A stretch of DNA of 64,000 nt from Parcubacteria group bacterium GW2011_GWA2_40_23 (GCA_000996245.1 LBYP01000005.1:10305-74304); one strand, 5' to 3'. Shown: positions 244-64,000, counted from the first letter of the stretch. Program-made: numbers and translations. Notes: a model not told the origin generated them from the letters alone.

Positions 244-375
244 TATGACTTATCTTACAAAGAAATAGGGTAAATGACAACTTGACGAAAAAAAATAACA
301 AGGGTAAGCTTATATGATTTGCTATGTGTGTAGCAAAGTGTTCGTTGAGGGACAACCCCAAGGCTGGAGGTGTGC

Positions 376-1894
376 GATGCTGAACTCGGTTCGGAACTAC
401 TTCAAGGACTTCGGTCAGCTCTTCCAACTGCCGCGCGAGTTCTGGACGATCCAGGGGCTGAACTTCGTCTACTGCGCCTTCTACTTCACCTTCGTGACGA
501 TGAGCACCCTGCACCTGAGCCAGGACGTGGGCTTCAGCGACGAAGGCGCCGGACTCCTGTTCGGTGTCTTCATGTTCGGCACGGCCATCATCCAGATCGT
601 CCTCGGTCCGGTCATGGACATCCTGGGCTTCCGCAAGACGCCCCTGCTGGCTGCGGCCATCATCACGGTCGGCATGCTCGGCATCGGCCTCGTCCCCGTT
701 ACGCTCGGCGCCACGGATCAGGCGCGTACGCTCATGGTGCTGTTCTACATTATCGCCATGGTCGGCAACGGCCTCATGTTCCCGGTTCTCACGGCTGGCG
801 TGAAGCGCTACAGCAACTCCGAGACGCGCGGTGCAGGCTTCAACATGTGGTACCTGACCATGAACGTCGGCGCGATGCTGACCTTCCTGATCGACTTCAT
901 GCGCAAGCCCCTCGAGGACAAGGCCACCACCGAACAGCTCGCGATCTTCCGCGATGCCGGTGGCAACGTCAACATCATTTGGTACCTGGTCGCACTGCTG
1001 ATCCTCTCGGGTCTCATCGTCTTCTTCTTCCTCAAGAAGGAAGACCAGTTCCCCGAGTTCAACGCTACCGCTGAAGATCTGGCGAAGGCCAAGGAACCCA
1101 AGCCCAAGCAGCCCTTCGGCCAGACGATGAAGGAAATCTGGGCGGACAAGGGCTTCCGCAAGGTGCTCGCGCTCCTGTTCTTCACGATCCCGGCGCACAT
1201 CCCCTTCGTGGCCATTTTCGTGATCTTTCCCAAGTACTACACGCGCGTGATCGCCCCGGACGTGGATCTCGGCTTCCTCGCGTCGATGAACCCGATCATC
1301 ATCATCGCCGGTCTGCTGCTGTTCGCTCCTATCCTAAAACGCTTCAGCGTCTATTGGGTGCTGGTCGTCGGCATGTTCATCGGTGGTGCGTCCTGCCTGG
1401 TTCTCGCGATCCCGCCGAAGTTCCTCGGTTCGGTCTTCGGTGCTTCGGACATCGGCAGCATCTACCTCACCATGGTGGGCATCCAGATCGTGGTCTTCGC
1501 CATGGGCGAGTTTGTGTGGAGCCCGCAGCTCCAGGCCTACGTCGGCGCCATCGCCCCCGAGGGCAAGGAAGGCACCTACATGGGCGTGACTCGCTACCCC
1601 TACACCCTGGCCAAGCTGCTGGGTGGTGCGGTGGGTGGCCTGCTTCTCGCCAAATACTGCCCCGAAGGCGTGAAGCCGCTCATCGAAGCGGGCACGCTGG
1701 CCTACTCCAAGAGCCCAGAGTTCATGAACCTCATTCTGGCCCTGTTCGCGCTCTCGAGCCCGATCGCCCTGCTTCTCATGAAGAAGACGTTCTACGTCGA
1801 GAACAAGGCGACGGACATGGATACCGTTACCTTTTGGGTGCTTGAAAAGGTGTTTTCTTCGCTAAATTATGCTAAGATTTCAATGTTTAACTAG
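376..1894 (+). CDS. MFS-type transporter (12-TM), GC-rich
   Basis: ORF 314..1894, with the likely true start at ATG 376 preceded by GGAGG. Multiple hydrophobic helices and an MFS motif-A-like loop (PVMDILGFRKTPLL). GC-rich body with an AT-rich 3' tail. Confidence 0.65.
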
Positions 1895-1941
1895 TTAAAG
1901 TGCCAAATATGACAAAACGATAACAGCCCAGCGAGGACAAG

Positions 1942-2721
1942 ATGCACATTGCAGACGCGAATCCACAAATCTTCAGACATTTCATGAAAAGAAGTGTATG
2001 GTATCTTTCCATGCCCTTCCCGACCGCAGTCACCATGCCCATGAGTAGAGCATCAAGAGAAAGAGTTCTCGGTCAACTCCAGACCGAATGGGGCAAAGGC
2101 AATAGCTCCTTCGCCGAGATTCTGCACAGCCTGCGTGATGCCGAAGCCGAAGACCTCGCCTTAGCCGTGGAACTGTACATCCTCAGCGCCGGTGGTTTCT
2201 ACGCCAACCGCGTTGCTCACATGCGCGATTACCTGAAGCGACTCGATGAAGACTACCCCCACGGCGATGAATGCAGGAGAAATCTCTGCGAACGCGTCTT
2301 CTACAGCCTCATCGGCCTGCTCCGCGCCGTGCATTTCCTGACGTTCGATATTGCGCCGAACCGGCTCTCCAACCACCATCCCGATGAAGGCAACGCCCTC
2401 ATCGTCGCCACGCAAGAGACCATGTGGAAATACCTGTCCTACCCCTTCCGCGACGGCTACGGACATGACGTCGAGGCCGAACTGCGCCAAGAGCTGGCGG
2501 CTGCGCTTCAGGACTACACCCAAGGCGCGGTCAGACCCCTCCCGAACAACAAGCAGCGCGTCATGCTGGGTCAGGTTCAAAGGTTGCTCCAAGGCAACGA
2601 GGATGGTTACTTACACCCCCTGAACGAATTCCTCTGCCGCGAGTTCCTCGCCGCTGGCCTCGCCAACTGCGACCGTCCCAGCATGCTCAAGATCATCATG
2701 GCCTTGAGACAAGCCTCATAA
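1942..2721 (+). CDS. hypothetical protein (259 aa), GC-rich
   Basis: Long ORF with GAGGA RBS 5 nt upstream; no recognised domain. Confidence 0.5.
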   Translation: MHIADANPQIFRHFMKRSVWYLSMPFPTAVTMPMSRASRERVLGQLQTEWGKGNSSFAEILHSLRDAEAEDLALAVELYILSAGGFYANRVAHMRDYLKRLDEDYPHGDECRRNLCERVFYSLIGLLRAVHFLTFDIAPNRLSNHHPDEGNALIVATQETMWKYLSYPFRDGYGHDVEAELRQELAAALQDYTQGAVRPLPNNKQRVMLGQVQRLLQGNEDGYLHPLNEFLCREFLAAGLANCDRPSMLKIIMALRQAS

Positions 2722-2921
2722 TTCTCATCGGAGCCAGCATCATTGCTTGGCTCCGGTTTGTTGCGAGGAGCCAAAGTAAACAATTTAAGCGACGTTTACC
2801 CTGCACTCAGTCATCTGTAGTACGGGGAAGCAATCTCTTGATCATATCCCAAGGAAATGAATTAGAGATTGCCGCGTCGTCTTTCACTGCGTTTCGGTCT
2901 CCTTGCAAATCGGACGAAAAC

Positions 2922-2949
2922 TGTGACTTGACAATCACTGACTTGACAA
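2922..2949. repeat. tandem duplication of 14-bp TGACTTGACAATCAC; the second copy supplies a TTGACA -35 box (17 nt to TAATTT)
   Basis: Direct repeat seen in sequence about 70 nt upstream of ATG 3021. Confidence 0.6.
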
Positions 2950-3020
2950 TCACATACGAAATTGCTAATTTTAACTCTTCACCGCCAAAAGCGGGAAGAC
3001 AGAAAAACTGCAGAGAGGTG

Positions 3021-3746
3021 ATGGATCCCCGACAGAGACCCCAAACCGGAGCTTTCGCTTTCGCCAAGGACAACGCCGCCCTGGGCTTCCTTGGCTCGCT
3101 GGGGGCCTTCCTCGGCCGACGTGGGAACAAGGTCGTGAACGTCGTCTTCATGGATGGCAGCTCGTCCCTGAACGGCTACGGAGAGGCCCTGCGAGACGGC
3201 CTGAACGAGTACATCGCCAAGATCAAGGCCGCCGAACCCGGCGTCCAGCACGCCCTCATGGTGGTCAAGGTCCAGACCCAGTACTCGTTGCTCGTGCCCT
3301 TCTCCAGCATCGAGAACGTCAGCCCCATCAGCCACTTCGACACGGCCGACATGACGCTGCTCTGGATGCCCCTCTGGCGGATGATCCGCACGTTCACGAG
3401 CGTCTACGTCAACCTGACACCCGAACAGCAGAAGGAAATCCAGTTCGTCTTCGGCATCTTCACCGACGGCGAAGACACCGAGTCCGATCGTCGGTACTTC
3501 CCCCACATACTGGTGGAAGAAGTCAAGAAAGCCCGCGCCATGGGCTTCGAGTTCTACGTCAACGGCTACCGCATCAACGCGGCCGGCATCGCCGGTGCCA
3601 TGGGCATGCCCACCGACAAGGTGCACGCCATCACGTTCGAAAAGAGCCCCGAGGGCATCCGCACCTCGAGCCAGACCTTCGCCGGCGTCAGCCTGTCGTT
3701 CTTCAAGGATGACGGCTTCAAGCCGCCCGCCGTCAATCGTCCGTAG
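3021..3746 (+). CDS. von Willebrand factor A-like (MIDAS DxSxS) protein, hypothetical
   Basis: Start at ATG 3021 (GAGAGGTG RBS) inside ORF 2838..3746. Motif VVNVVFMDGSSSL is a hydrophobic strand followed by D-G-S-S-S. Confidence 0.45.
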   Translation: MDPRQRPQTGAFAFAKDNAALGFLGSLGAFLGRRGNKVVNVVFMDGSSSLNGYGEALRDGLNEYIAKIKAAEPGVQHALMVVKVQTQYSLLVPFSSIENVSPISHFDTADMTLLWMPLWRMIRTFTSVYVNLTPEQQKEIQFVFGIFTDGEDTESDRRYFPHILVEEVKKARAMGFEFYVNGYRINAAGIAGAMGMPTDKVHAITFEKSPEGIRTSSQTFAGVSLSFFKDDGFKPPAVNRP

Positions 3747-3756
3747 TACGCAAACG

Positions 3757-3791
3757 GAGCCAGCAACATTCTGCTTGGCTCCGTATTTTTT
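3757..3791 (+). terminator. rho-independent terminator
   Basis: Hairpin ggagccagcaacattctgcttggctcc followed by a T-run. A near-identical hairpin (ggagccagcatcattgcttggctcc) occurs at 2731..2757 after the preceding gene. Confidence 0.6.
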
Positions 3792-3881
3792 GCCATGATT
3801 AACATGATTCTCTTGATTATCAGCCTAAACTTGTCGTAGATCTATGTTCTCTGATCTATATTCCATGATACATGCTGAATC

Positions 3882-6647
3882 CTAATAAATCTTTTCCATC
3901 TCCTGCCAATTCTTCCCTGCCTCAGTTTCAACTTTAATCGGCACTTCTAATTTATGAATTTTTTCCATTTTTTCATCAATAATTTTCGCTACCTGATCCA
4001 CCATATCCATCGGCACTTCAAAGACTAATTCATCGTGAACCTGAAGCATCATTTTTATTTTATTACTGGTGACTGGTGACTGGTTACTGGTGACTAGTTT
4101 ATTGAGTCCCTTAATTATCTTATAGACCTCGATCATCGCAATTTTCATTAAATCAGCTGCTGTACCTTGAATCGGCATGTTAATAGCCATACGTTCGGCG
4201 GACAAGCGCACTTGAGCAACACCGGAATTTATTTCTGGCAAATATCTGCGGCGACCAAATAATGTTTGGACATAACCATTGTCACGCGCTTCTTCTTTTA
4301 TTTTATCTAAATAAATTTTAACGTCTTTGTAAGTTTCAAAATATTTTTCGATAAATTCTCGTGCACGTTCTCGCGAAATCTTTTTGCGCCAAGCCAAACC
4401 ATAGGCACCCATACCATACAAAACTCCAAAGTTGACTTCCTTAGCCGCAGAACGCATTTCCTTATCGACTTTTTCGAGTGGGACTTCAAAAATTTTAGCC
4501 GCTGTTGTGGTATGAATATCTTCGCCACGTTTAAAAACATCCATCATGTTTTTATCTTTAGCGAGACAAGCGATGACGCGCAATTCAACTTGAGAATAGT
4601 CAGCCGAAACCATACGTTGACCACGATCAGCCACAAACGCTTTGCGAATTGCTTTGCCCCAATCTGTCCGAATTGGAATATTCTGCAAATTTGGATTGGA
4701 TGATGACAATCTTCCCGTCGCAGTAATGGTTTGATTGAACTCTGTATGCACTCGACCGGTTTTTGGATTGATCAATTTCGGTAAAGCATCGACATAAGTT
4801 GATTGTAATTTAGAAAGCTCACGATAATCTTCGATGAACGGCACAATTTCATGTTGATCATGCAATTTTTCAAGTTCGACAGCCGCGGTTGAAATGCCAG
4901 TCTTAGTTTTACCTATTCCCTCGCGACTAATATTCAACTTTTCAAATAAAATTTCTTTGAGTTGTAATGGCGAACTAATATTAAATTCTTCACCAGCTAA
5001 TTTATAAATCTTTTTAGTTAAGGCTTTTAATTGTTTGCTTAATTCTTTTGATAAAACACTGAGTTGTTCTTCGTCGATTTTGATTCCCGTGAGTTCCATC
5101 TCAACCAAAACTTCGACAAGCGGCATTTCGATTTCATCAAAAAGTTTTATCAGTTCATTTTCTTTCAATTCGTTTTGCAAAGGTTTTATCAACCGGAAAG
5201 TATAATCAGCATCTTCGCAAGAATAATCTGACACTTTGTTTTTGTCGACAAATGCGAGCGTGGTTTGTCCCTTGCCTTTGCCGATTAAATCAGTAATTTT
5301 AGTCATCTGATAGCCCAGCTCGCGGAAAACCATATCGTCGAGCTTGTGGGCTCGGGTACCAGGATTCAGCAGATATGAAGCGATCATGGTATCGAACCAA
5401 ATACCTTCGACTTCAAGCCCATTGCACTTCAACGCCTTGATATCAAACTTCATATTCTGTCCGGCTTTCTTGACGTTTGGATCGGCAAAGATTGGTTTTA
5501 ATTTTTCGAGGAATTCAGGCTTCGCTTCAACATAATAAGCCACGCCCTCTTCCCAGCAAAAACTAATACCCAGTAATTTTGCGAGAATAACATCGAGCCC
5601 GTCAGTTTCAGTATCAAAAACAAAAAACTCTTGTTGGTTTAATTTTTTCAAAAACTTTTCAAACTCAACTGCTGTTTGAATTAAAGTGTAATTGTGATTT
5701 GATTGTCTTTCGGTTCGTGCTTCAGTTTCAACTTCTGTTTTGCCACCAAGAACCGGCAAACGATTTAATAAACTTTTAAATTCAAGCTCCTGAAAGAGTT
5801 CATAAACATCTTCTTTGTTATAAGATTGCAAAGCGCATTTTTCTAAAGTGAAATCAATCGGCACATCGTGCACGATAGTTGAGAGAACGCGGCTTTGATA
5901 TGCCTGATCTTTATTATCAATAAGCAATTGATACAACCGCTCCGTGACTTTTATGTTTTTATAAACTCCAACTTTAACTTTTTTATACATTTCTTCCATG
6001 GTGCCAAATTCTTTGACTAGTCCGAGCGCTGTTTTTTCGCCCACACCAGGAACTCCCGGTATATTATCTGACGGGTCACCACGCAAACCTTTATAGTCGA
6101 TGAGTTGCTCGGGGCCAATTCCTTCATATTTTTCCTTAACTCCTTTGACATCATAAATAACCGTATCATTCATACCTTTGCGTAAAGTATAAACATGAGT
6201 ATTCTCGTCGACCAACTGAAACGCATCTTTATCTCCCGTCACAATAATAGAAAGAATCTCATCATTATCAACACTTTTTTCATGACACAAAGTTCCAATC
6301 ACATCATCAGCTTCAAAACCAGCTTTTTCAAAAATCGGTACATTCATGGCTTCTAAAACTTGTTTTAAAATTGGAATTTGATCGTACAATTCATCTGGTT
6401 GTTTAACACGTGTGGCTTTGTAGTCGACCGAAAGTTCATGACGGAAAGTTTTTTCTTTTCTATCAAAAGTCACAGCCAAATATTCTGGTTTAAATTCAGT
6501 TAAAGCTTTAAATAAAGTTGTTAGGAATCCGTAAACAGCATGAACCAAGCGGCCATCCTTAGTGGTCATTGGTGGCAGGGCGTGCCAGGCGCGATGGAGT
6601 AAGGCATTGCCGTCGACGATAACAAATTTTTTTCTTGATTTGACCAT
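3882..6647 (-). CDS. polA: DNA polymerase I
   Basis: 921 aa with an N-terminal 5'-3' exonuclease region, pol motif DYSQVELRV and QVHDELVFEV. AT-rich. Confidence 0.95.
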   Translation of the reverse strand: MVKSRKKFVIVDGNALLHRAWHALPPMTTKDGRLVHAVYGFLTTLFKALTEFKPEYLAVTFDRKEKTFRHELSVDYKATRVKQPDELYDQIPILKQVLEAMNVPIFEKAGFEADDVIGTLCHEKSVDNDEILSIIVTGDKDAFQLVDENTHVYTLRKGMNDTVIYDVKGVKEKYEGIGPEQLIDYKGLRGDPSDNIPGVPGVGEKTALGLVKEFGTMEEMYKKVKVGVYKNIKVTERLYQLLIDNKDQAYQSRVLSTIVHDVPIDFTLEKCALQSYNKEDVYELFQELEFKSLLNRLPVLGGKTEVETEARTERQSNHNYTLIQTAVEFEKFLKKLNQQEFFVFDTETDGLDVILAKLLGISFCWEEGVAYYVEAKPEFLEKLKPIFADPNVKKAGQNMKFDIKALKCNGLEVEGIWFDTMIASYLLNPGTRAHKLDDMVFRELGYQMTKITDLIGKGKGQTTLAFVDKNKVSDYSCEDADYTFRLIKPLQNELKENELIKLFDEIEMPLVEVLVEMELTGIKIDEEQLSVLSKELSKQLKALTKKIYKLAGEEFNISSPLQLKEILFEKLNISREGIGKTKTGISTAAVELEKLHDQHEIVPFIEDYRELSKLQSTYVDALPKLINPKTGRVHTEFNQTITATGRLSSSNPNLQNIPIRTDWGKAIRKAFVADRGQRMVSADYSQVELRVIACLAKDKNMMDVFKRGEDIHTTTAAKIFEVPLEKVDKEMRSAAKEVNFGVLYGMGAYGLAWRKKISRERAREFIEKYFETYKDVKIYLDKIKEEARDNGYVQTLFGRRRYLPEINSGVAQVRLSAERMAINMPIQGTAADLMKIAMIEVYKIIKGLNKLVTSNQSPVTSNKIKMMLQVHDELVFEVPMDMVDQVAKIIDEKMEKIHKLEVPIKVETEAGKNWQEMEKIY

Positions 6648-6822
6648 ATATAGAGATTATAGCAAAAAGGACGGATGAACGTAAGGATGCAGAAACGAAA
6701 GAACTTACGAACCAAAGAACGTATGAACTGCTTGTCGTTTTCATGGAACATAGATCATGGATAAAAAAAATAGGGATAAGTATTAAGGGTCCTGCTTGAG
6801 AGAAACAACATTGAGGAAAGCC

Positions 6823-7338
6823 ATGAGCCGTCTCCTTAAGTTGCGAGGACAACAGCGAGTCGATCGAATCGATGCGCTTATCCTAAAGCAGCCCAAGCTC
6901 GCCCCTTATGTCTATGGTCGTAAAGGTGGAAATACCCCGCGTCGTGGCGTGAAGGTCTTCGAAGAGAGTAGCTTCACCGCAGCAACACGTGACAGCATCG
7001 GTGAGTCCCTCACTATCATACTGATCCCGTACACCGAGAACAGAGAAGACTGCTATCTGACTGTGGTACACAGCCACAAAGAAACCGCTGTATCCAAGAC
7101 AAAGACAAGCACCAGAGAATCTCTTTGCATCGGCATCGTTAGCCAACGTGGAGACAACTACAACAAGAAGATCCTTCTCTTCCACTCTGCTTTCTGGACC
7201 AGAAGCGAGTTCTGGTTCACCATCAACTACAAGCCGGATTCGGAAATTACGATGAAAGGCAAGATCGCTTTCACTCACGTCGCTGGGGAAATGCTTCGGA
7301 TCGTGATCGGATTAAATCCGTTCCCGCGTCGTCGGTAA
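6823..7338 (+). CDS. hypothetical protein, paralog 1 of a tandem pair (mid-GC)
   Basis: ATG 6823 inside ORF 6796..7338. The 5' UTR GAAACAACATTGAGGAAAG is conserved with the downstream paralog. Shared motif LIPYTENRE-DCYLTVV. Confidence 0.5.
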   Translation: MSRLLKLRGQQRVDRIDALILKQPKLAPYVYGRKGGNTPRRGVKVFEESSFTAATRDSIGESLTIILIPYTENREDCYLTVVHSHKETAVSKTKTSTRESLCIGIVSQRGDNYNKKILLFHSAFWTRSEFWFTINYKPDSEITMKGKIAFTHVAGEMLRIVIGLNPFPRRR

Positions 7339-7344
7339 CTAGCT

Positions 7345-7381
7345 CCGCCCGCCCCGCAAACGGGGACGGGCGGCATTTTTT
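7345..7381 (+). terminator. rho-independent terminator
   Basis: Hairpin ccgcccgccccgcaaacggggacgggcgg followed by a T-run. Confidence 0.65.
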
Positions 7382-7457
7382 ACATTGACAGTTCCCCAAT
7401 TCTAGCCTAAACTTAGCTGTTGTGGGTTGCGGAAAAGAAACAACCTTGAGGAAACAA

Positions 7458-7925
7458 ATGACCGACCTGGGAACAATTCACAAAGTTCTAAGCGCTTTCC
7501 CTGCCACTCCCCGGATACTGAGAGACGTCTGGATCGCCTCGCGCCGAGGTAACGTCGTCCTCTTCGACCAAAGTGAAATCTCCCCGTCCTGGTTACAGGA
7601 CAAGACCGAACTGCTCATTCCCTTTACCCGCAAGGGAAACAAGTTCTTCTTCGTCATCCAGATCAAGCGCAACGACTACGGCAAGCTGAAAGAGAGATTC
7701 TCTGACCGCACCTTAATAGTTCTGCGCGTCGGTGTCATCCCTTGGACCACAAAACCCAAGGGCTTCCAACTCACCGACAAGAACTACGTAGCCGAAGTGA
7801 ACTACTACCTGCAACGCGGCTGCGAGATCAACACCAGGGTCCGAGTGCAAGCCGATGTCTCAGAACGCCAAGTCGTACTCGGCATTATCGCCGCGCTTTA
7901 CGACCTGCCGAAGTACGTGAAGTAA
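7458..7925 (+). CDS. hypothetical protein, paralog 2 of the tandem pair
   Basis: ATG 7458 inside ORF 7422..7925. 5' UTR GAAACAACCTTGAGGAAAC. Shared motif LIPFTRKGNKFFFVIQ. Confidence 0.5.
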   Translation: MTDLGTIHKVLSAFPATPRILRDVWIASRRGNVVLFDQSEISPSWLQDKTELLIPFTRKGNKFFFVIQIKRNDYGKLKERFSDRTLIVLRVGVIPWTTKPKGFQLTDKNYVAEVNYYLQRGCEINTRVRVQADVSERQVVLGIIAALYDLPKYVK

Positions 7926-7931
7926 ACGAAA

Positions 7932-7968
7932 CCGCTCGAACGTCATCACGTTCGAGCGGCTATTTTTT
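7932..7968 (+). terminator. rho-independent terminator
   Basis: Hairpin ccgctcgaacgtcatcacgttcgagcgg followed by a T-run. Confidence 0.65.
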
Positions 7969-8107
7969 ATATACTACTAATTACGAATCAGCTACTAATC
8001 TACCAATACTAATTTTGCGATCATATTGAACAACTTCAACCTAGTACTATAAAGTGTTCCCTTTAAGTGCTAGGCAAGCAAGCGCAGCGATACAGCAACT
8101 AGAACAA

Positions 8108-9196
8108 TTAAACATTAAACCTAAACAAACACACATCCCCATCTTGCATCACATAATTCTTCCCTTCCAACCGTATCAACCCTTTTTCTTTGGCCGCAAC
8201 TTCGCTACCAACATTTAAAAGATCTTGCCAATTGATAGTCTCTGACGAGATAAATCCGCGTTCAAAGTCGCCATGAATTTTACCTGCCGCTTGTGGAGCC
8301 TTCATACCACGAGTAATTGTCCAAGCTCGAGTTTCATCTGGCCCAGTCGTTAAAAAACTAATGAGATTCAAAGTTTCATAGGCTTTGACGATGATGCGAT
8401 CGAGCCCAGACATTTTTAAACCCAAAGCTTCCATATATTCGGCTACTTCTTCTTTTGGTAAATCAGCCAAGTCAGCTTCTACTTTTGCGCAGACAGGAAT
8501 AATTACTTCACCAGGCAATTTTTCAAAAGTCGGATTATCATTAACTCGATTTTCATCAACATTCAAAAGATAGAGCATTGGTTTTAAAGTCAAAAAACTT
8601 AAATAAGTAATTTGCTGCTTCTCGTCATCAGTTAAATCTATTTTTCTAAGAGCCTTGCCATTTTCTAAAGCTGGAATAATTTTAGTTTCAAAAAGTTCTA
8701 CCAATTTTATTGTTTCTTTTTCGTCTGGCGAACCAGAAGTTTTTAATTTGCCTTTTAATTTTGATAAATGCGGTTTGGCCACTTCCAAATCTGCAAAAGC
8801 AAGTTCAATATCAATTGTTTCCGCATCTCCTTCAGGATCAACTTTATTATTGACGTGAATAATTTCTCCAGATCGGAAGTCGCGCAGCACATGACAAATC
8901 GCATCAACCTCGCGAATATTATGCAAAAATTTATTTCCCAAACCCTCGCCCTTATGTGCGCCTTTGACCAAGCCAGCAATATCGACAAACTCGATGGTGG
9001 TGTAAATGGTCTTGGCTGATTTTGACATGACCGCAAGTTTTTCCAAGCGCTCGTCAGGCACAGCAACAATACCCTTATTTGGTTCAATGGTACAAAAAGG
9101 GTAGTTGGCAATATCAATTTGTTTTTTGGTTAGTGCCTTAAATAAGGTTGATTTCCCCACATTTGGCAAGCCGACAATTCCGATTGAAAATGACAT
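8108..9196 (-). CDS. ychF: ribosome-binding ATPase YchF
   Basis: N-terminus [23 protein letters not shown]; GTPase/TGS-like architecture. Confidence 0.9.
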
Positions 9197-9375
9197 ATAG
9201 TTTTTTAGAATAATGAATAAGGAAGAACGAATAACGAATTATGAATTTGTGCAGCATTATTCCTTATTCTTTATTCATTATTCAAACAGCTTTATTCAAG
9301 GACATGATACCGTAATTTTAGATAAAAAACAACAGGCCATAGCTTTATGCGATGACCTGCTGTGCATGGGACAAA

Positions 9376-10278: not shown

Positions 10279-10424
10279 GACCTCCTTATTAGTTATTTTT
10301 TGTTAAGGTCATTTTAACATGTAAAGGATATTTATCAAAGGGAAATATTCACACCTTGACTAAAAGGCCGAAATTTTACTTAATGAGCAAAAAAAGGTAA
10401 AATTAGAGTTGAATAACATAAAAT

Positions 10425-12200: not shown

Positions 12201-12340
12201 TTAACAGCAAGTCTCTAGCTATAATCAAAAAAGCAACCCAGTACTATAAAGTGTTCCCTTTAAGTGCTGGGCAAGTAAAACAAGAAAACAAAAAACTAAC
12301 GCCGACTATTTGCTTTGTTGCTTTCTTGTTTTCTTGATTA

Positions 12341-13642: not shown

Positions 13643-13662
13643 ATCTCGGGAAAAAACATTCC

Positions 13663-13703
13663 CAAAAAAAATTAGCGGCGACCTTCATGATGATGGTCGC
13701 CGC
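13663..13703 (-). terminator. rho-independent terminator for the small minus-strand gene
   Basis: Hairpin gcggcgacc...ggtcgccgc with a T-run on the minus strand. Confidence 0.55.
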
Positions 13704-13709
13704 TTGTTG

Positions 13710-13892: not shown

Positions 13893-14031
13893 GAGAACCT
13901 CCCTTCAGGTGACCAACTAATATATCAAGGTCTTACTTTTTTGTCAATGACACCAGTTGTTTTTCTGCTAAATTTAACTGAAAAAACAACTCTTTTGCAG
14001 GGCTCAATGTCCTCAGCCCCCACAAAAGAGC

Positions 14032-14060: not shown

Positions 14061-14094
14061 GTAGTGTCCGAGGTAGTATAACCTGGAGGTTCGA

Positions 14095-53670: not shown

Positions 53671-53746
53671 TGGAGCGGGTAAGGGGAGTCGAACCCCTAT
53701 CTTCAGCTTGGAAAGCTGTAATAATACCGCTATACTATACCCGCCC
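53671..53746 (-). tRNA. tRNA-Gly (UCC)
   Basis: Hand-folded; anticodon loop TTTCCAA; CCA encoded. Confidence 0.8.
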
Positions 53747-53915
53747 TGTAGTACATGCTCCGCATGACTACAGGGCAAGCCCTTTATCAAGCGAAACTTT
53801 AGTACGTTTCATCGCATGACTACAGGGCAAGCCCTTTATCAAGCGAAGCTTTAGTACATTTTTCCGCGTGATTGCAGGACCAAGCCCAACGATCCGCGAA
53901 GCTGTAATTCAAGTC
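53747..53915 (-). repeat. three tandem copies of the tRNA leader element (GGGCTTGCCC + hairpin with GCGAAGC-type apex)
   Basis: Successive copies are progressively more degenerate. Confidence 0.6.
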
Positions 53916-54981: not shown

Positions 54982-55058
54982 TGGTGGGTCCGCTGGGATT
55001 TGAACCCAGGACGCCCAGCTTAAAAGGCTGGCGCTCTAACCAACTGAGCTACGAACCC
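54982..55058 (-). tRNA. tRNA-Lys (UUU)
   Basis: Anticodon loop CTTTTAA; GGGTTCGTAGCTCAGTTGG. Confidence 0.85.
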
Positions 55059-55546
55059 TAAAGTACATGCTTCGCATGACTTTAGGGCAAGCCCTAGAAT
55101 CAAACGAAGTTGTTATTGGTTGTTCTTCCTAAAGTATGATCTTAACATTAATCTAATTGCTCTTTTACCGTCCGTTGTTTTGAAATAAGCCTCTCTTCTT
55201 AGGGCATCATCACGACTTAGATGTGCCTCGTAATAAATAACATTCCAAGGGCCTCGATTTTTTGTTGATGGGACAAGGCCTGCATTGTGCTTTAATGATC
55301 TGTGATAAACATCATCTGGAGTAAAGCCAGCATAAAGGTTTTTAGTTTTTTGACCTTCTAAAACATACGTATAATACATATGTTTTAAGAATAATACCAG
55401 CTATTGCAAAGAACAAATCTAGGGGGGGGTATCACTGGGCGGTTCACCCTGAAGTATAAATTTCATTTAACCTCATGGCTAGCCATGAAGTTACGTGATA
55501 ATCATGTCTGGTTTACCATAAAGTCATGTGATTAGCATGTACTTTA

Positions 55547-55623
55547 TGGTCGGGGTGGTGGGACTCGAACCCACGGCCTCTTGGTCCCAAACCAAGCACT
55601 CTAGCCAACTGAGCCACACCCCG
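55547..55623 (-). tRNA. tRNA-Pro (UGG)
   Basis: Anticodon loop TTTGGGA. Confidence 0.85.
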
Positions 55624-55724
55624 AAGTACAGGCTTCGCCTGACTTCGGGGTAAACCCCGCATCAAGCAAAGCTAGATTTTACAATGAATGGCTTGCCACA
55701 AACTGACACGGAGTGTCTAATTTG

Positions 55725-55800
55725 TGGTGCCGAGCCCCAGAATTGAACTGGGGACGCAAGGATTTTCAGTCCTTCGCTCTACCACTGAGCTAGCTCGGCC
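55725..55800 (-). tRNA. tRNA-Phe (GAA)
   Basis: Anticodon loop CTGAAAA. Confidence 0.85.
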
Positions 55801-55958
55801 CGGTAGTACATGCTTCGCATGACTACCGGGCAAGCCCTGTAATAAAGCGAAGTTTAGTACGTTTTTTCGCATGACTGCAGTGTAACCTCAGCAATCAAGC
55901 GAAGTAACAGTATTATGATGGATGGCTTGCCATGAAGTCACACGTAGTATGTACTTCA

Positions 55959-56036
55959 TGGTGGGCGCGGGGGGAATCGAACCTCCGACCTCAGCATTAT
56001 CAGTGCTGCGCTCTAACCAACTGAGCTACGCGCCCC
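55959..56036 (-). tRNA. tRNA-Ile (GAU)
   Basis: Anticodon loop CTGATAA. Confidence 0.85.
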
Positions 56037-56136
56037 GAAGTACAAGCTTCGCTTGACTTCGGGGCAAGCCCTTCAGCAAGGAAGCAGTTATCAATAAATG
56101 GCTTGCCATAAAGTCATGCGATTAGCATGTACTTTA

Positions 56137-56213
56137 TGGTGGGTGGCATAGGATTCGAACCTACGACCCCTTCGGTGTAAACGAAGTGCTCTAACCAGCT
56201 GAGCTAGCCACCC
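56137..56213 (-). tRNA. tRNA-Val (UAC)
   Basis: Anticodon loop TTTACAC. Confidence 0.85.
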
Positions 56214-56594
56214 AGAAGTACAGGCTTTGCCTGACTTCTGGGTAAACCCATAGTCAAACAAAGTTTTTGTACATGGTTCGTCTGACTTCTGGCTTGCCCT
56301 GTGGCGCAATGCCACGGGGGTAAACCCATAATCAAGCGTAGAGTAATAAACAAAACTTAGCTTAGCTAACTAAGCCATCGTGCGCTCAGTATAGCAGGAA
56401 TCTATAGCTATTTCAAGTTATTTTACTTTTAAATAACAGCAAAAGTATAGCAAAAAAAAAGAGACTAATCAATAGTCCTTTTTTTGTTAACTTCAGAATA
56501 GTGGTACGAATCATTTGTCTCCTGCATAGAGAATAAAATACAAGAGCAGGATCGACCTAAGACGATACAGATAAACTGTTCGTCATAGCCCCTT

Positions 56595-58066
56595 AGAAAG
56601 GAGTTGTTTCCATCCACAGCTTCCGCTACGGATGCCTTGTTACGACTTAGCCCCTATCATCGGTCCTACCTTCTGCCGTCCTACAACGACATTCGGGCAT
56701 TACCGACTCTCTTGACTTGACGGGCGGTGTGTACAAGACTCGAGAACGTATTCACCGTGACGTGCTGATCCACGGTTACTAGCGATTCCAGCTTCATGAG
56801 GTCGAGTTTCAGACCTCAATCCGAACTGAGACCAATTTTGGTGGGATTTGCTCCATCTTACGATTTGGCGTCCCTTTGTATTGGCCATTGTAGCATGTGT
56901 GTTGCCCAAGGTGTAAGAGCCATGCTGATTTGACGTCATCCCCACCTTCCTCCTTGTTATACAAGGCAGTTTTCTAATAAAGTATAAATTAGAATGAGGG
57001 TTGCGCTCGTTATCGGACTTAACCGTACACCTCACGGCACGAGCTGACGGCAACCATGCAGCACCTGTCTAGCACCCTCGTAGGCGGCCCTAGTTTCTTA
57101 GGGCTTGCAGCTAGATTTCAAACCTTGGTAAGGTTTTTCGCTTATCGTCGAATTAAACCACGTGCTCCACCGCTTGTGCGAGTCCCCGTCAATTCCTTTG
57201 AGTTTTAATCTTGCGATCGTACTCCCCAGGCGGGATATTTAACGCGTTAGCTTTTTGTGACGACACTGAGAGGGTCGATACTCCCAATGTCTAATATCCA
57301 TAGTTTACGGCGTGGACTACGCGGGTATCTAATCCGCTTCGCTCCCCACGCTTTCGTGCCTTAGTGTCAGTATTGTCCTAGTAAGCTGCCTTCGCATTTG
57401 GTGTTCCTGCCGATATTAACGGATTTAACCCCTACACCGGCAATTCCGCTTACCTCTTCCAAACTCAAGTCTAACAGTATCAGTGGCGATTCCCCGGTTG
57501 AGCCGAAGGATTTAACCACTGACTTAATAGACCACCTACGCACGCTTTACGCCCAATAAATCCGGGTAACGCTTGGGGCACTCGTATTACCGCTGCTGCT
57601 GGCACGAGTTTAGCAGCCCCTTATTCTTCTGGTACAGTCATTAGTTCTTCCCAGAAAAAAGATTTTTACACCCCGAAGGGTTTCATCAACCACGCGGCGT
57701 CGCTCCTTCACACTTTCGTGCATTGAGGAAAATTCTCGACTGCAGCCTCCCGTAGGAGTCTGGGCAGTGTCTCAGTCCCAGTGAGGCGGGTCGTGCTCTC
57801 ACACCCGCTACCCGTCGTAGCCTTGGTAAGCTTTTACCTTACCAACTAGCTGATAGGCCATAGGCCACTCTCTGACCGATAAATCTTTACTGCACCGACT
57901 CATGCCAGTGCAGACCATCGTGTATTAGCTCAGATTTCTCCGAGTTGTTCACGAGTCAGAGGTATGTTACCAATGTGTTACTCACCCGTTTGCCACTCCT
58001 ATTCTATCCGAAGAAGGAATAGGCGTTCGACTTGCATGCCTTAGACACTGGTGATAGCAAATCTAC
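56595..58066 (-). rRNA. 16S ribosomal RNA
   Basis: Reverse-complement contains GTGCCAGCAGCCGCGGTAATAC and AAGTCGTAACAAGG...CTCCTTTCT. 3' end carries anti-SD ACUCCUU; 5' region about 25 nt shorter than the E. coli layout; ends approximate. Confidence 0.85.
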
Positions 58067-58134
58067 CTTTAAAATCATTGAATTGACAAATGATTCCTTA
58101 CCACTATTCTGATGTCAACGATCATGTGGTTAAA

Positions 58135-58236: not shown

Positions 58237-59118
58237 ATGTTCGAACTCAAAAATTTGATCCAAAAAGACAAGCCGCCAGCTCAAATTGAGGCTGAAAAAG
58301 CTAATCCGGAAATTAAGGCAGAATACCACAAGCAGGTAATGGAAGTGATACTCGAGCGAGCCGAAAAGATCCTCTGGGAAAATCCAAATGCTGGTTGGCC
58401 TGATTTAGTTCAGCAAATTCTCGAAGCAGCGATCGAGGTCGGTGCAAAGCCAAGTGCAGTTCAACGTAAATGGGTCGAGGAAACCGTTCAGCAATGGATT
58501 GATGATGTGGGGAAGGAAATAACTGTGATAGAAGCTTTGGCAGATGAAGCTTTTAACGCCAATGTTTATCCGTCTGGTCCAAACGATAAAGCTTGGGATG
58601 ACGAAAAAGCGAAAGAGCAACAACGTTTCGATGATAACCAGGAACCCTGGTTGTTGTTTGAGACTGATAGATGGATTCAGCAAGCCTTGTTACATAAATT
58701 ACCAACAATTAGTAAGGAGCCGAAAGACTTTGTTTTCCGTTCTGACCATCCGCCGATGATTGTGATTCAGTGTTTGGAGAAGTCAGATTATGAGGCTCTT
58801 TATAAATTTAAGAGTGTCGATAATGATCGTTGGAAATCAACTGATGGGTTTGTCCCAATGGATTCTCTTCTTCTGGATTCAACGCACCCGATTTATAGTA
58901 ATTTAAAAGGGTGTATTACCATTGTTCGATCTGCAAGCGAAGACACTAAACTACATGAGGAACAGCATCTTTTTTATGAACGTTATGTTGAGACTAAAAA
59001 AACAAATAATTTACGAGCCCTTGATGAACTAGCTGCATATTTAAAAGAGGGTCGCTATGATTTCACAACCAAAGGAATTTTTAGTCATATTTCTGAGGAG
59101 TCAGTGGTGGGTCTTTAA
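58237..59118 (+). CDS. hypothetical protein (293 aa)
   Basis: Acidic ORF. Confidence 0.5.
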   Translation: MFELKNLIQKDKPPAQIEAEKANPEIKAEYHKQVMEVILERAEKILWENPNAGWPDLVQQILEAAIEVGAKPSAVQRKWVEETVQQWIDDVGKEITVIEALADEAFNANVYPSGPNDKAWDDEKAKEQQRFDDNQEPWLLFETDRWIQQALLHKLPTISKEPKDFVFRSDHPPMIVIQCLEKSDYEALYKFKSVDNDRWKSTDGFVPMDSLLLDSTHPIYSNLKGCITIVRSASEDTKLHEEQHLFYERYVETKKTNNLRALDELAAYLKEGRYDFTTKGIFSHISEESVVGL

Positions 59119-59169
59119 AAACAAATTTATGATCCAGATTGGCAGCAAGTAGTAAATCAAATTTTACGT

Positions 59170-60204
59170 TTGAAATATTTTGGCATCCCAGCTGAATCAT
59201 TATGGTCTCGGGTTGCGGCCTGTGAGGATCTAAAAGAATTGGCCCGACGTTTAGAAAAAGTAGAAGTGGATCCAACGCACTTTGATTTTGATGTAGCAAC
59301 TCAAAATGGAAGCTCTCTGACTTGGGTGCTTGAAAATTATAGAATGTTACCCGAGGCAGTTCATGAGAAAATAAAGCCGAAGGAAGCTGAGGAACAAGTG
59401 AAGCAGGATTTTGATTTTTTACAGCTAGCTGAAATGAATGATGCCCTGGATGCCATGGATAAGAATGAAAATGCATTGTCATCATTTGGTTATGATTTAG
59501 GTTTATTGACAAATATTTGGCGTAAAATAGTTGACGAAGCTTATGCTCTTGTTGAGGCCTTTCCTGAGCTGAAAGAGAAGGAGTGGGGAAGAAAATCATT
59601 TGCAAATCCGGATCAAAAAGTATCAGTTATTGATAGTGATTTATTGATAAGATTGAGAACTGCAGCTGATTATTTTAGTACTATTATGCCTCCAGTTCCC
59701 TTGCCTGAATTTTTAGGTACTGATACCTGGGGAGAAACAATAACCAAAATGGAAGAATTTAGAGACAAGCTTGACTGGGCTTCTTCTACCCAAGACAAGA
59801 TTAATCAATTAGAATGGTCTTTCCGTGCTTCTCAAAATAAAATCCCTCGGTTAATTGAAAAACATTTTGGTGTTAAGGGTTTTAACAAAATCTCTTTTAG
59901 CGAAGCAGCTTCTTTGATAGAGGAGCTTATTTCTGCAATCAGGTGGAGAACCGCGGAAACAGAAAACATGAAAAGAGTTTCTGGGGTTTTGGAAGAACAG
60001 ATGAAGAGCGACTGGGACGATGAAGGTGAAATATTTAATGATAGTCAAGATTCATCTTTGATGGATCCGTTTGAAGCTCATCAATATTTTAAAGAAGAGT
60101 TGGCTAAACAACAGCAATATTTGGCCGAGCATTATCCTGAATCATTGTTAAATAATCCTGATGAATTGGCGGCAATTGTGGCTGCAAGATTCCCAAATAA
60201 TTAA
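59170..60204 (+). CDS. hypothetical protein (344 aa)
   Basis: Acidic ORF. Confidence 0.5.
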   Translation: MKYFGIPAESLWSRVAACEDLKELARRLEKVEVDPTHFDFDVATQNGSSLTWVLENYRMLPEAVHEKIKPKEAEEQVKQDFDFLQLAEMNDALDAMDKNENALSSFGYDLGLLTNIWRKIVDEAYALVEAFPELKEKEWGRKSFANPDQKVSVIDSDLLIRLRTAADYFSTIMPPVPLPEFLGTDTWGETITKMEEFRDKLDWASSTQDKINQLEWSFRASQNKIPRLIEKHFGVKGFNKISFSEAASLIEELISAIRWRTAETENMKRVSGVLEEQMKSDWDDEGEIFNDSQDSSLMDPFEAHQYFKEELAKQQQYLAEHYPESLLNNPDELAAIVAARFPNN

Positions 60205-60250: not shown

Positions 60251-60943
60251 TTAGTTTTTTGATTTTTCTTTCCGCCACTCAGCAATTTTTTTATGATGTC
60301 CAGACAACAGTACTTCTGGCACTTTTAATCTTTTAGTTACTTGTTTTTTTGTTTTTTTGTTTTTTTGATTAAGTCCTCTCCTGTATGTAAATACTTCGGG
60401 TCGCGAATACTGCGGATATTCCAGATATCCTGGCGTCGAATGCGATTCTTCGTCCAGCGATTCGATTTTTCCTAGGACGCCAGGGATTAACCTCGTCACT
60501 GAGTCGATGATAACCGCCGCGCCAAGTTCTCCTCCAGTCAAAACATAATTTCCGATAGAGATTTCTTCGTCGACAAATTCAAGAATGCGTTCGTCATGTC
60601 CCTCATATCTTGGACAAATAAAAATAAGTTGATCGAGTTTAGAAAATTTTTGAGCCATTTGCTGATTCCAGGTTTTACCTTTGGCGGAAAGTAATATGAT
60701 TTTTGATTTTTTAGCTCGTCGAATTTTTTTCAGCGCTTTATAAATTGGTTCAACCATCATGACTTGACCAGGTCCGCCGCCATAAGGTCTGTCGTCCACA
60801 GTACCGTGATTGTCGACAGCATAGTCGCGCAAGTTGTGCATTTTAAAACTGACTATTTTCTTTTCTTGGGCAATCCGAATCATGCCCTTTTCAATGTAAG
60901 AGTCGAGGATTTCGGGGAAGATTGTGAGGATTTCGAATTTCAT
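60251..60943 (-). CDS. trmD: tRNA (guanine37-N1)-methyltransferase
   Basis: MKFEILTIFPEI ... DDRPYGGGPG. Confidence 0.85.
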   Translation of the reverse strand: MKFEILTIFPEILDSYIEKGMIRIAQEKKIVSFKMHNLRDYAVDNHGTVDDRPYGGGPGQVMMVEPIYKALKKIRRAKKSKIILLSAKGKTWNQQMAQKFSKLDQLIFICPRYEGHDERILEFVDEEISIGNYVLTGGELGAAVIIDSVTRLIPGVLGKIESLDEESHSTPGYLEYPQYSRPEVFTYRRGLNQKNKKTKKQVTKRLKVPEVLLSGHHKKIAEWRKEKSKN

Positions 60944-62069: not shown

Positions 62070-62501
62070 AATTTAAGTTATAAGTTATAAGCGAGATAAG
62101 TTTTAAGCTTTTTTTAAATTACTTATAACTTGTCTCTCTAATTGATATTTTTAATGAAATATTTTTTATTGGTTTACCCTGAAGTTAAAAAGAGAATACT
62201 TTTTATACTGCAGGGTGACTTGATAATAACTTTTTTTATTCAATAAGTCAATGGTATTGGCGTTTTGACAAAGAATAGCGTTTGTGGGGAAGGGATTGCA
62301 TTTTTTGAGATTGTATGATAATATTTTGCTCACATTTGGCTATTTGAAGAGCTAGGTGGGAAGGCTATGTCAGTTATTGACAAAGTCTTAAAAATATGCT
62401 ATTATAGTAGGTCGTTTAATTAAAGCTGGACTAGGGTTATTAGGTGCTTTCTGAGCTTTTCATGAAGCCTAAATATACGCTAGTTTTAGCAAAAATTTAG
62501 T

Positions 62502-63047
62502 ATGAACTTACGTAAAGTGATAGATTCATCTTTATCTAAAGAGATCAAAACAGCCTTAGTGCTGGTTCTTATAGTGTTTGCTTTTAACATGACAGTACCT
62601 CAGCCGACGTATGCGTTTAGCTTTCCAAAAGCTGATGCTGTGAAGCAATATGTGTTACGAAGCTCTGTCCCTCTTGATCTTTTGACTGAGCGGTTCATCG
62701 ATGAAGAATTTGGCTTTGCTAAAGATGTGCCAGACGTGAAGGTTCTTAGAACTCACACTGTCGTAGCAACAGCTTATTCAAGCGATCCTGCACAAACCGA
62801 TAATACTCCTTGTATCACTGCCAACGGCTATGATGTTTGTAAGAGTGGTGAGGAAAATGTGATTGCAGCTAACTTTTTACGCTTTGGTACCAAGGTCAGA
62901 ATCCCTGAACTTTACGGTGACAAAGTGTTTACAGTTCAAGATAGAATGAATACCAAATATAACTCTCGTGTCGACTTTTGGAAGACTTCAAGAAATCGTG
63001 CGATTACCTTTGGCAAGAGATTAATAACAATTGAAGTGATTGAATAA
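62502..63047 (+). CDS. 3D-domain (MltA-like) cell-wall-associated protein
   Basis: VATAYS...DNTPCITANG...FGTKVRIP...VFTVQDRM pattern. Confidence 0.5.
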   Translation: MNLRKVIDSSLSKEIKTALVLVLIVFAFNMTVPQPTYAFSFPKADAVKQYVLRSSVPLDLLTERFIDEEFGFAKDVPDVKVLRTHTVVATAYSSDPAQTDNTPCITANGYDVCKSGEENVIAANFLRFGTKVRIPELYGDKVFTVQDRMNTKYNSRVDFWKTSRNRAITFGKRLITIEVIE

Positions 63048-63149
63048 TTCAACAAATAAAAATGTCCCGTTTATACGGGATATTTTTTTTACAATCAATG
63101 GCTTGCCACGAAAAAGTAGGGAACAAAAATCTTTGTTCCCTACTTTTTT

Positions 63150-63224
63150 TGGAGGCCTGGGTCGGGATTGAACCGACGAATAACGGTTTTGCAAACCGGT
63201 GCCTTACCACTTGGCGACCAGGCC
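63150..63224 (-). tRNA. tRNA-Cys (GCA)
   Basis: Anticodon loop TTGCAAA; trailer hairpin + TGGCAAGCCATTG of the same family. Confidence 0.8.
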
Positions 63225-63463
63225 ATTAATATTTTCTGTCGCCCGATTACACTTGCCTGCCCCGCATTCGAACGTAGTGAGTAGTGCGGGGGCGACCAGG
63301 CCACGCGAGATTATAATAACATGTAAAATCCATCTTTGCAACGGACAAAAATTGTTCAAGAATATCCTCAGCATGGGATTTTTTGATTGACATTATCATC
63401 AATCTTGAATAACATTGATGAGGTGCTTGTGGTGCCTTTAACCTGCCTTTGAAGGAGGCATTC

Positions 63464-64000
63464 ATGGATCGGTTACGAGCGAGTTTGGGAACAGCGAGAC
63501 GCGTTGCGGTTGTCTGCAACCAGTGGGGAGACACTGGTAAGGGCAAGATCGTGGATCTCTGGGTTGACTCGATGTTGAAGCAATCACACAAAGCAGTGTA
63601 CTGTTTCCGTGGCATCGGTGGCCCGAACGCTGGACATACCGTTGTTGCAGACGGTAAAACGGTTGTCTTGCATTCGTTGCCGAGTGGTGTTTTGCATGAC
63701 GCTGAGGGTTGTCGTTCTGTCATTGGTCCTGGCGCAGTGATCGACCCGCGTGCGACTGTTGCGGAGTTGGATGAGTTGGCAACGCTTTGTGGTCTCGATG
63801 TTCATTGTCTTTCGATTTCTCATATGGCTCCACTTATCCTTCCGCATCACATTCTGATTGACCGTGTTAAAGAAAAGACACAAGGGATTGGAACTACCGG
63901 TCGTGGCATTGGTCCCGCATATGCGGATTTGGTTGGGCGTAACGCAATTTTGATTAACGACTTGTTGAACCCGGAGAGCTTGAAAGAAAAACTCCAAGCA
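63464..64000 (+). CDS. purA: adenylosuccinate synthetase, N-terminal part (partial, runs off window end), GC-rich
   Basis: GAAGGAGG RBS; VAVVCNQWGDTGKGKIVD P-loop; no stop in window. Confidence 0.7.
   Translation, partial: MDRLRASLGTARRVAVVCNQWGDTGKGKIVDLWVDSMLKQSHKAVYCFRGIGGPNAGHTVVADGKTVVLHSLPSGVLHDAEGCRSVIGPGAVIDPRATVAELDELATLCGLDVHCLSISHMAPLILPHHILIDRVKEKTQGIGTTGRGIGPAYADLVGRNAILINDLLNPESLKEKLQA

Follow-up and report, generated by a model that had tools for sequence, protein, structure and literature searches.

Phage morons, associated with Hendrix and colleagues and with the lambdoid phages HK97 and HK022, are reportedly single genes that lie between backbone genes with a sigma-70 promoter and a factor-independent terminator of their own. 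Their base composition is unlike that of their neighbours, and they vary between close relatives. Here we describe gene-sized, GC-rich islands that interrupt the AT-rich backbone of a 64,000-nt stretch from Parcubacteria group bacterium GW2011_GWA2_40_23 (GCA_000996245.1, LBYP01000005.1:10305-74304; the whole stretch is called the window below). The islands resemble morons in their own promoters and terminators, deviant composition and variability, but they lie in a cellular chromosome, have no phage link that we could find, and are raised by ~20 points of GC. Klein, Misulovin and Eddy (2002) are said to have reported GC-rich structural RNA genes in AT-rich genomes; such genes explain the peaks at 55.5-58.1 kb of the window, whereas its eleven islands differ in being protein-coding.

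Members of the Candidate Phyla Radiation (CPR, or Patescibacteria) form a large uncultured share of bacterial diversity and have tiny genomes; by what routes they acquire functions is still an open matter. The window suggests that about one fifth of a Parcubacteria chromosome segment can consist of plug-in expression units whose Shine-Dalgarno (SD) use and composition are unlike those of the core genome. In aquifer Patescibacteria, genomic islands and transferred genes are described as making up as much as 13% of genome length, mostly through exchange among Patescibacteria (PMC12455944, mSystems 2025). Those islands are like ours in host group, aquifer habitat, accessory cargo, deviant composition, within-group exchange and, roughly, the share of DNA involved (up to 13% of a genome there, 19% of the window here); ours differ in being gene-sized, dense, without integrases or mobility genes that we could find, and SD-led in an SD-poor genome. 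Text searches of that paper found no mention of gene-sized SD-led units, or of a family persisting across AT-rich genomes with a third-codon-position GC (GC3) of ~0.9. The islands differ from known systems in how densely gene-sized units are packed into a cellular chromosome, in their SD contrast with the core genome, in the lack of mobility genes among our findings and in the persistence of GC3 ~0.9 in one family across AT-rich genomes.

GC-rich expression units in an AT-rich chromosome

Segmentation of the whole window with a two-state GC hidden Markov model (HMM), read together with a sliding GC profile, delimited ten sharp-edged protein-coding segments with mean GC of 0.51-0.58, against a window mean of 0.41 and a backbone of 0.35-0.38. 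An eleventh island, at 46.8-47.3 kb, is weaker (GC 0.45 and GC3 0.49 over its coding sequence, CDS) and received no HMM call. The 11 protein-coding islands per 64 kb, each 0.5-3.4 kb, total ~12.3 kb and hold at least 22 open reading frames (ORFs). Because a 1-kb stretch at GC ≥0.52 lies more than 7 standard deviations from a homogeneous sequence of 0.41 GC, the islands are not due to chance. GC3 is 0.48-0.88 in island ORFs versus a pooled 0.32 in the backbone; GC at first and second codon positions (GC1, GC2) is also elevated, with GC3 > GC1 > GC2 in nearly all island ORFs, and both GC3 and the use of C versus G at fourfold sites vary from island to island. A preliminary description, made from the sequence alone, had proposed at least twelve sharply bounded islands of 55-65% GC: the sharp jumps and the codon-usage contrast are confirmed, the number becomes 11, and mean GC becomes 0.45-0.58, with 0.62-0.65 reached only in local 300-nt peaks. 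Structural RNA genes, namely five tRNAs and 16S rRNA, account for two additional peaks (55.5-56.3 and 56.6-57.9 kb). Rfam at gathering thresholds matched tRNAs and 16S only; the islands do not behave as structural RNAs, showing codon periodicity, no Rfam match and, in five of them, Pfam matches (MFS, DksA, radical SAM/SPASM, DUF218 and PurA). The GC-rich islands are real, gene-sized protein-coding units.

Each island consists of one to three stand-alone units, in which a promoter, an SD sequence, a GC-rich CDS and a hairpin terminator follow one another (Table 1). GGAGG-type SD sequences precede 16 of 22 island genes but 2 of 47 backbone genes (Fisher p = 5e-9; the backbone was scored for GGAG or GAGG upstream), in keeping with the proposal that most island genes carry such sites. 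The 16S gene ends in ...AACUCCUUUCU at its 3′ end, and the tail ...ACUCCUUUCU can pair with GGAGG-type SD sequences. GC-rich hairpins with T-runs close the units, as had also been described. The TTGACA-17-TAnnnT promoter-like sites noted upstream of island units do exist and do lie in AT-rich DNA; they are no island marker, because backbone genes and tRNAs carry equally good ones. In most units the GC-rich stretch sets in no more than a few tens of bases from the start codon and gives out at the terminator; where a unit does not abut another GC-rich unit, its 100-nt flanks have ~0.17-0.37 GC, versus ~0.6-0.9 at its fourfold sites. The cargo is accessory: a major facilitator superfamily (MFS) transporter, a putative lipoprotein, small membrane and zinc-ribbon proteins, a DksA/TraR protein, a radical SAM/SPASM protein, DUF218 and PurA. 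BLASTP among the island proteins found no paralogues. The intervening backbone carries polA, holA, ychF, a T2SSE/PilB ATPase gene, tsaD, tsaE, metK, panD, a class II aminoacyl-tRNA synthetase-type gene, three TrmB regulators and transporters.

Such abrupt boundaries could betray a chimeric assembly or an engineered construct, both raised in the preliminary description, and at one junction (1819-1915) the window differs from the GenBank assembly. Ten public contigs encode the PolA protein of the window, and five of them (NCBI, JGI, two ENA MEGAHIT assemblies and Logan) were retrieved; these independent assemblies, from different samples, are 99.99-100% identical to window positions 1-16647 except at that strain-variable junction, and they span the junctions of three islands. 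A JGI contig (L090; L numbers denote our loci) carries the variant junction at 100% identity, and insertion of an element resembling an insertion sequence (IS) explains it. Exact copies of ten island proteins, spread over the whole window, recur in between three and six sources, where the contigs measure 31-75 kb; NCBI gives the organism as Parcubacteria group bacterium GW2011_GWC2_39_14. The same architecture is present in the sister species L006 and in the CPR loci L086, L088, L092, L170 and L172. As far as assemblies can show, a chimera or construct is refuted, and we assign it next to no probability.

Strains differ where the MFS gene ends. Some assemblies keep the MFS stop codon, its terminator and the promoter of the next gene, as in L001 and L005; others hold the IS-like element there. 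In the window a remnant of this element displaces all three, extends the MFS ORF by 25 codons and joins the MFS gene to its downstream neighbour in a single transcription unit. The element is AT-rich, and its copies lie in co-occurring strains (L090, 1-107 and 1417-1539; L002-L004, 14734-15437). We call it IS-like because it combines a terminal repeat with a 9-bp duplication, ACGGACATG, and multi-copy behaviour in the assemblies; Pfam found no transposase domain in its 165-amino-acid (aa) C-terminal ORF, in which a transposase-like motif was noted by eye. That an AT-rich element, with its duplication, lies within the last part of a GC-rich gene is evidence that the two are physically linked in vivo.

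In GenBank record LBWI01000007.1 (L001, 14913-17501, corresponding to window 1-1894) the MFS gene is not called and holA is stretched to 652 aa through the MFS antisense strand; the actual holA start lies near position 245 of the window. Composition-based binning and gene callers mishandle regions of this kind, as the missed MFS gene and the over-extended holA illustrate.

Probable exchange within the CPR and the search for a source

The probable if not secure explanation of the islands is that they form the flexible part of the genome: moron-like cassettes that are exchanged horizontally and come for the most part from the gene pool of the CPR. This reading builds on the compositional contrast, the unit anatomy, the natural linkage, gain or loss between species and strains, and CPR-type relatives in two families. 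Inserted between AT-rich housekeeping genes of a natural Parcubacteria chromosome, the units would have reached it through horizontal transfer on different occasions, out of lineages that are richer in GC and belong mainly to the CPR pool. Several sources or ages would fit the spread of GC3 (0.48-0.88) and of fourfold C/G use.

Island content differs between sister species, as it does between strains. The sister species L006, nearest in GTDB (PolA 84% identical in amino acids), could be compared over 16 kb and also has GC islands. Its polA-holA gap holds two different cassettes, both on the minus strand and of identical architecture, and it lacks the cassette that L001 carries between the RmuC and NUDIX genes, just outside the window. 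At the five comparable island positions, one cassette is shared (an isochorismatase cassette ~5.5 kb left of the window, syntenic in both species), and the others are absent or hold different genes. Because polA adjoins tRNA-Cys in L006 and in the more distant L007, islands 2 and 11 of the window lie at rearrangement breakpoints. Two AT-rich backbone genes, of 293 and 344 aa (58237-60204, between 16S and the gene at 60251-60943), are also absent from L006 (compared with L006 272-624), so that content differences are not limited to GC-rich islands.

Relatives across genomes were surveyed for two island families, MFS and radical SAM. The best MFS relatives, 80-51% identical, come from CPR genomes, the named ones being Magasanikbacteria and Peregrinibacteria, and the neighbourhood of the gene is different in almost every genome (a Fic-domain neighbour is common to two). 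Between L088 and L092, 85% identical in nucleotides, homology stops at the downstream edge of the cassette, and upstream only a 134-nt stretch (73%) aligns. For the radical SAM/SPASM protein there are 133 relatives at 45-78% identity, and those with names are CPR or DPANN. Its gene adjoins a TrmB regulator in the window (AT-rich, 17920-18657, minus strand) and in four other CPR genomes (L174-L177), with divergent transcription in the window and three of the four others. According to the preliminary description, best hits in related low-GC genomes at the same loci would indicate ancestral genes. Such hits were obtained, though in an unexpected form. MFS relatives do occur in low-GC CPR genomes, but at other loci, where they again form GC islands; the radical SAM gene does keep its TrmB neighbour, but is GC-rich only in the window, where it exceeds the backbone by 0.14 against 0.00-0.07 in the four other genomes. 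Of the multi-event horizontal acquisition that the description had proposed, the origin itself is best supported, with islands that differ between sister species and MFS neighbourhoods that differ between genomes; its recency and its suggested source are not supported.

Very recent acquisition from a high-GC organism outside the CPR, for instance an actinobacterial host, would account for the raised GC at all three codon positions and for SD use resembling that of high-GC bacteria, and the next MFS relatives, at 30-34% identity, do lie on contigs of mostly 0.55-0.70 GC. The closest relatives in both surveyed families, however, are CPR or DPANN at 45-80% identity, the nearest standing at 78-80%. 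Clusters at 90% identity, drawn from ~15 billion proteins, have one or two members for each of ten island proteins; all named members are this Parcubacteria, and three members are unnamed length variants. For the putative lipoprotein, 1.84 billion representatives yielded only 16 distant relatives, none above 37% identity over most of the length; a 180-aa fragment reaches 52% across 87 residues. Promoters are host-like and flanks AT-rich. A PLSDB search with the MFS protein returned no plasmid donor, its best matches being Bacteroides transporters at 25% identity. On these comparisons a recent high-GC donor appears already contradicted for the families tested, and we consider it highly improbable overall.

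A derivation from phage morons, prophage remnants or defence islands would suit the moron-like anatomy (own promoter and terminator, deviant composition), and one of ten island proteins, from the ORF at 2838-3746, has a weak PHROGs match (phrog_7371, unknown function, E 1.5e-5). The other nine have none, no PADLOC defence match was obtained for any of the ten, and no relatives emerged when the viral contigs of IMG/VR were scanned with each of three queries (MFS alignment, lipoprotein, radical SAM protein), which leaves the phage source named in the preliminary description without a match beyond that one. The islands do not lie in a phage or prophage genome: the backbone is housekeeping (polA, holA, ychF, tsaDE, metK, panD, 16S, tRNAs), and no phage structural or integrase genes were found among the ORFs scanned. 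We judge such an origin to be very unlikely.

Like classical genomic islands, the units show deviant composition and codon usage and a patchy distribution among close relatives; the mobility genes, flanking repeats, insertion at tRNAs and donor of matching composition expected of such islands were not found, only island 11 adjoins a tRNA (tRNA-Cys), and the IS-like element occurs solely as a strain variant where the MFS gene ends. With integron cassettes and clusters of attC sites lacking an integron-integrase (CALIN) they share the form of gene-sized mobile units. Unlike those, the units of the window are scattered on both strands rather than arrayed and have promoters of their own; no shared recombination site or other common 3′ element and no IntI or other integrase was seen in the window. 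Points of likeness to CALIN exist outside the window, in a repeat that follows six genes of L086 and in an element 3′ of the MFS gene in five genomes, whose 5′ part matches RYYYAAC; no GTTRRRY partner site was seen.

High GC in AT-rich hosts

Several observations weigh against transfer as a complete account of the islands. In most units the GC excess is largely confined to CDS and terminator, unlike the remains of an en-bloc import from a GC-rich donor. No integrase or transposase appeared in the Pfam scans, which did not take in every backbone ORF, and neither attachment sites, direct repeats, target duplications, inverted repeats nor shared motifs were found at island boundaries. A donor lineage of matching composition was not found either: the relatives are CPR or DPANN, the 90% clusters of the ten island proteins contain nothing that bears another organism's name, and the MFS relatives, too, form islands in AT-rich genomes. 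At ≥50% identity their GC exceeds that of the surroundings in nine of nine contexts, none of them in a uniformly GC-rich genome. The radical SAM gene is no simple insertion, because its conserved TrmB neighbour is kept. Neutral amelioration in AT-rich hosts should, moreover, have erased the high GC of MFS fourfold sites (GC4); with no donor found and the family GC-rich across many AT-rich genomes, transfer leaves the persistence of high GC unexplained.

A gene-specific, GC-rich equilibrium would explain that persistence. SD-led monocistronic accessory genes would then be long-term CPR residents that keep a GC3 of 0.8-0.9 amid genomes of GC3 ~0.3, through selection on codon or mRNA properties or through GC-biased gene conversion in frequently recombined accessory genes. 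The GC would be no donor leftover, and transfer within the CPR may occur without being its source. The MFS family is a case in point: GC is 0.59-0.61 and GC3 0.79-0.90 in the window, L086/L091, L088, L092, L109, L170 and L172, over backbones of 0.33-0.40, and GC is 0.57 and GC3 0.76 in L171, on a contig of 0.52 GC whose other genes have GC3 of 0.56-0.66. GC3 of 0.76-0.90 is thus found in eight of nine contexts, and GC3 above backbone in all nine, at identities down to 50%. Fourfold sites are saturated in most pairs, with identities close to those expected from composition, yet GC4 is still 0.81-0.88 among the eight GC-rich copies. Being saturated and GC-rich at once, the family has therefore diversified under a GC-rich synonymous equilibrium, though eight of its nine sampled homes are AT-rich.

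The shared isochorismatase cassette points the same way. Fourfold identity between L001 and L006 is 0.31-0.44 in the backbone (four genes, at least 75 sites each) against an expected 0.27-0.28, which is near saturation; the cassette has GC3 of 0.80-0.82 in both species and a fourfold identity of 0.65. By our own calculation, its divergence under neutral decay to the backbone equilibrium would require an ancestral GC3 above 1 (n = 65 sites), a result that later recombinational transfer explains equally well. The GC excess also stops, for the most part, at CDS ends, with spacers of 0.23-0.37 GC even between adjoining GC-rich genes in L086, and the cargo of both surveyed families is typical of CPR and DPANN.

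Set against an equilibrium are the MFS gene of L173, which has fallen to GC 0.50 and GC3 0.58 in a genome of 0.35 GC, so that high GC is not obligatory; the radical SAM orthologues in four other CPR genomes, which lie within 0.00-0.07 of backbone GC; and codon signatures that are heterogeneous among islands. We know of no mechanism that yields GC3 of 0.9 versus 0.3 inside one bacterial genome. In the literature we found nothing specific on a GC-rich gene class in CPR, nor a description of two compositional regimes within one bacterial genome. We regard such an equilibrium, the main rival reading, as unlikely, though deserving of real weight; it and horizontal transfer are not mutually exclusive. 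Active maintenance of high GC would contradict the standard amelioration model used for dating and detecting horizontal transfer, and would offer a natural system in which to separate mutation bias, selection and biased gene conversion in bacteria.

Feature coordinates, repeats and RNA elements

Table 1. Islands and associated features. Positions refer to the window unless a locus is named; "HMM" gives the high-GC segment with its mean GC. UTR, untranslated region; TM, transmembrane.
Feature	Coordinates	Strand	Remarks
Island 1	343-3783	+	HMM 343-3783 (0.58); between holA (minus strand, start ~245) and polA (3882-6647, minus strand)
MFS/peptide-type transporter CDS, island 1	377-1894	+	SD GGAGG; Pfam MFS_1 8e-25; GC3 0.86
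IS-like element remnant, first ~95 nt	1820-1915	+	terminal repeat GATACCGTTACCTTTTGGGTGCTT; fused to 5′ UTR of 259-aa gene
259-aa CDS, island 1	1942-2721	+	GC3 0.70; no family match
241-aa CDS, island 1	3021-3746 (ORF open from 2838)	+	GC3 0.88; no family match
Hairpins, island 1	2794-2827; ~3752-3790	+	34-nt hairpin; hairpin with T-run
Island 2	6820-7960	+	HMM 6820-7960 (0.52); upstream of polA; not at this position in L006
ORFs, island 2	6796-7338; 7422-7925	+	180 aa; 167 aa; no family match
Signals, island 2	7385-7413; 7932-7959	+	promoter-like site; bidirectional terminator
Island 3	13675-14491		HMM 13675-14491 (0.54); two divergent units
Unit 1, island 3	13675-13703; 13710-13892; 13947-13919	-	terminator; 60-aa CDS (SD GGGAGG); promoter
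Unit 2, island 3	14032-14060; 14095-14436; 14466-14491	+	promoter; DksA/TraR zinc-finger CDS (SD GGAGG); terminator
Island 4	18796-20083	+	HMM 18911-20025 (0.53); promoter 18796-18824 (TTGACA-17-TAGAAT); terminator 20049-20083; divergent from TrmB gene
Radical SAM/SPASM CDS, island 4	18883-20031	+	GC 0.53; Pfam match
Island 5	21143-22062	-	HMM 21195-22026 (0.56); three small genes
Genes, island 5	21143-21490; 21516-21740; 21766-21990	-	115 aa; 74-aa zinc ribbon (SD AAGGAGG); 74 aa (SD GGAGG)
Promoter TTGACA, island 5	~22057-22062	-	read by eye
Island 6	30497-31766	-	HMM 30497-31766 (0.54); three genes, GGAGG-type SD on each
Genes, island 6	30727-31044; 31189-31464	-	105-aa membrane protein; 91 aa
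84-aa zinc-ribbon gene, island 6	31498-31752	-	C-terminal TM helix
Island 7	35981-36603	-	HMM 35985-36526 (0.55); terminator 36013-35981; DUF218 CDS 36019-36537; promoter 36603-36575 (TTGACA-17-TATCTT)
Island 8	38585-39580	-	HMM 38585-39547 (0.58); terminator 38614-38585 (13 pairs); promoter 39580-39552 (TTGACA-17-TATTAT)
294-aa CDS (putative lipoprotein), island 8	38621-39505	-	GC3 0.85; N-terminus MRRVLFIVLMLNMVYCSK lipoprotein-signal-like, by eye
90-aa ORF adjoining island 8	38186-38458	-	GC 0.49
Island 9	41818-42877	-	HMM 41818-42875 (0.545); three-gene unit and hairpin 41883-41916
Genes, island 9	42632-42877; 42102-42599	-	81-aa zinc ribbon; 165-aa membrane protein (SD GGAGG)
51-aa membrane protein gene, island 9	41953-42108	-	
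Island 10 (weak)	46737-47421	-	terminator 46761-46737; promoter 47421-47393
189-aa CDS, island 10	46775-47344	-	GC 0.45, GC3 0.49; SD GGGGAG; faces TrmB gene 47516-48265
Island 11 (cut by window end)	63420-64000	+	HMM 63420-64000 (0.51); adjoins tRNA-Cys 63150-63224 (minus strand)
purA (adenylosuccinate synthetase), island 11	from 63464	+	SD GGAGG; GC 0.51
tRNA-Pro/Phe/Ile/Val and 16S	55547-58090	-	structural-RNA GC peaks, no islands
MFS 3′ element, ~150 nt	L088 11500-11650; L092 2694-2842; L170 1185-1330; L172 3520-3680; L173 2800-2945		

The MFS gene is followed in five other CPR genomes by a conserved element of ~150 nt, consisting of ...RTCTAACTGCTTGTCACC and a 19-bp hairpin. RNAalifold indicates compensatory changes at 13 of its 41 pairs, and it has no Rfam match. 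It may mark a cassette boundary, because L088 and L092 cease to be homologous exactly where it ends.

A further run of repeats lies in L086 (5036-12248), where six copies of a 29-nt inverted-repeat element, AAGTTTGCCTACCGTCTCGGTAGGGTCTAC, stand one behind each of six consecutive genes in an 8-kb run. The run takes in GC-rich and AT-rich genes alike and resembles a cassette array. Within the window, a 45-nt repeat, CAACCTAGTACTATAAAGTGTTCCCTTTAAGTGCTAGGCAAGCAA, occurs at 8037-8081 and 12234-12278, downstream of ychF and of the pilB-like gene, in copies that are 93% identical; it and the 29-nt repeat have a TTGCCTA...TAGG hairpin core in common.

The tRNA genes of the window are each bracketed by a conserved box and hairpin (16216-16376, 53671-53882, 54982-56320 and 63075-63224). 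Upstream, GGCTTGCC or GGGTTTACC is followed by the hairpin; downstream, the hairpin is followed by GGCAAGCC, and the two flanks are mutually inverted. Judged from sequence, the inverted copies could form a processing stem around each tRNA; the elements match no Rfam family. A 34-nt hairpin, GTTTACCCYGCACYCAGTCATCTGTRGTRCGGGG, is present in islands 1 and 9 in copies that are 88% complementary and lie on opposite strands. As a candidate recombination site it was rejected, since it looks like the tRNA-flanking hairpins instead.

Behind the 16S gene (56597-58090) come tRNA-Val, Ile, Phe, Pro and Lys (Lys at 54982-55058) and then protein-coding genes; with no 23S gene in the window, the rRNA genes appear to be unlinked. 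The two TrmB paralogues at 47516-48265 and 48924-49673, like the regulator beside the radical SAM gene, face divergently transcribed genes.

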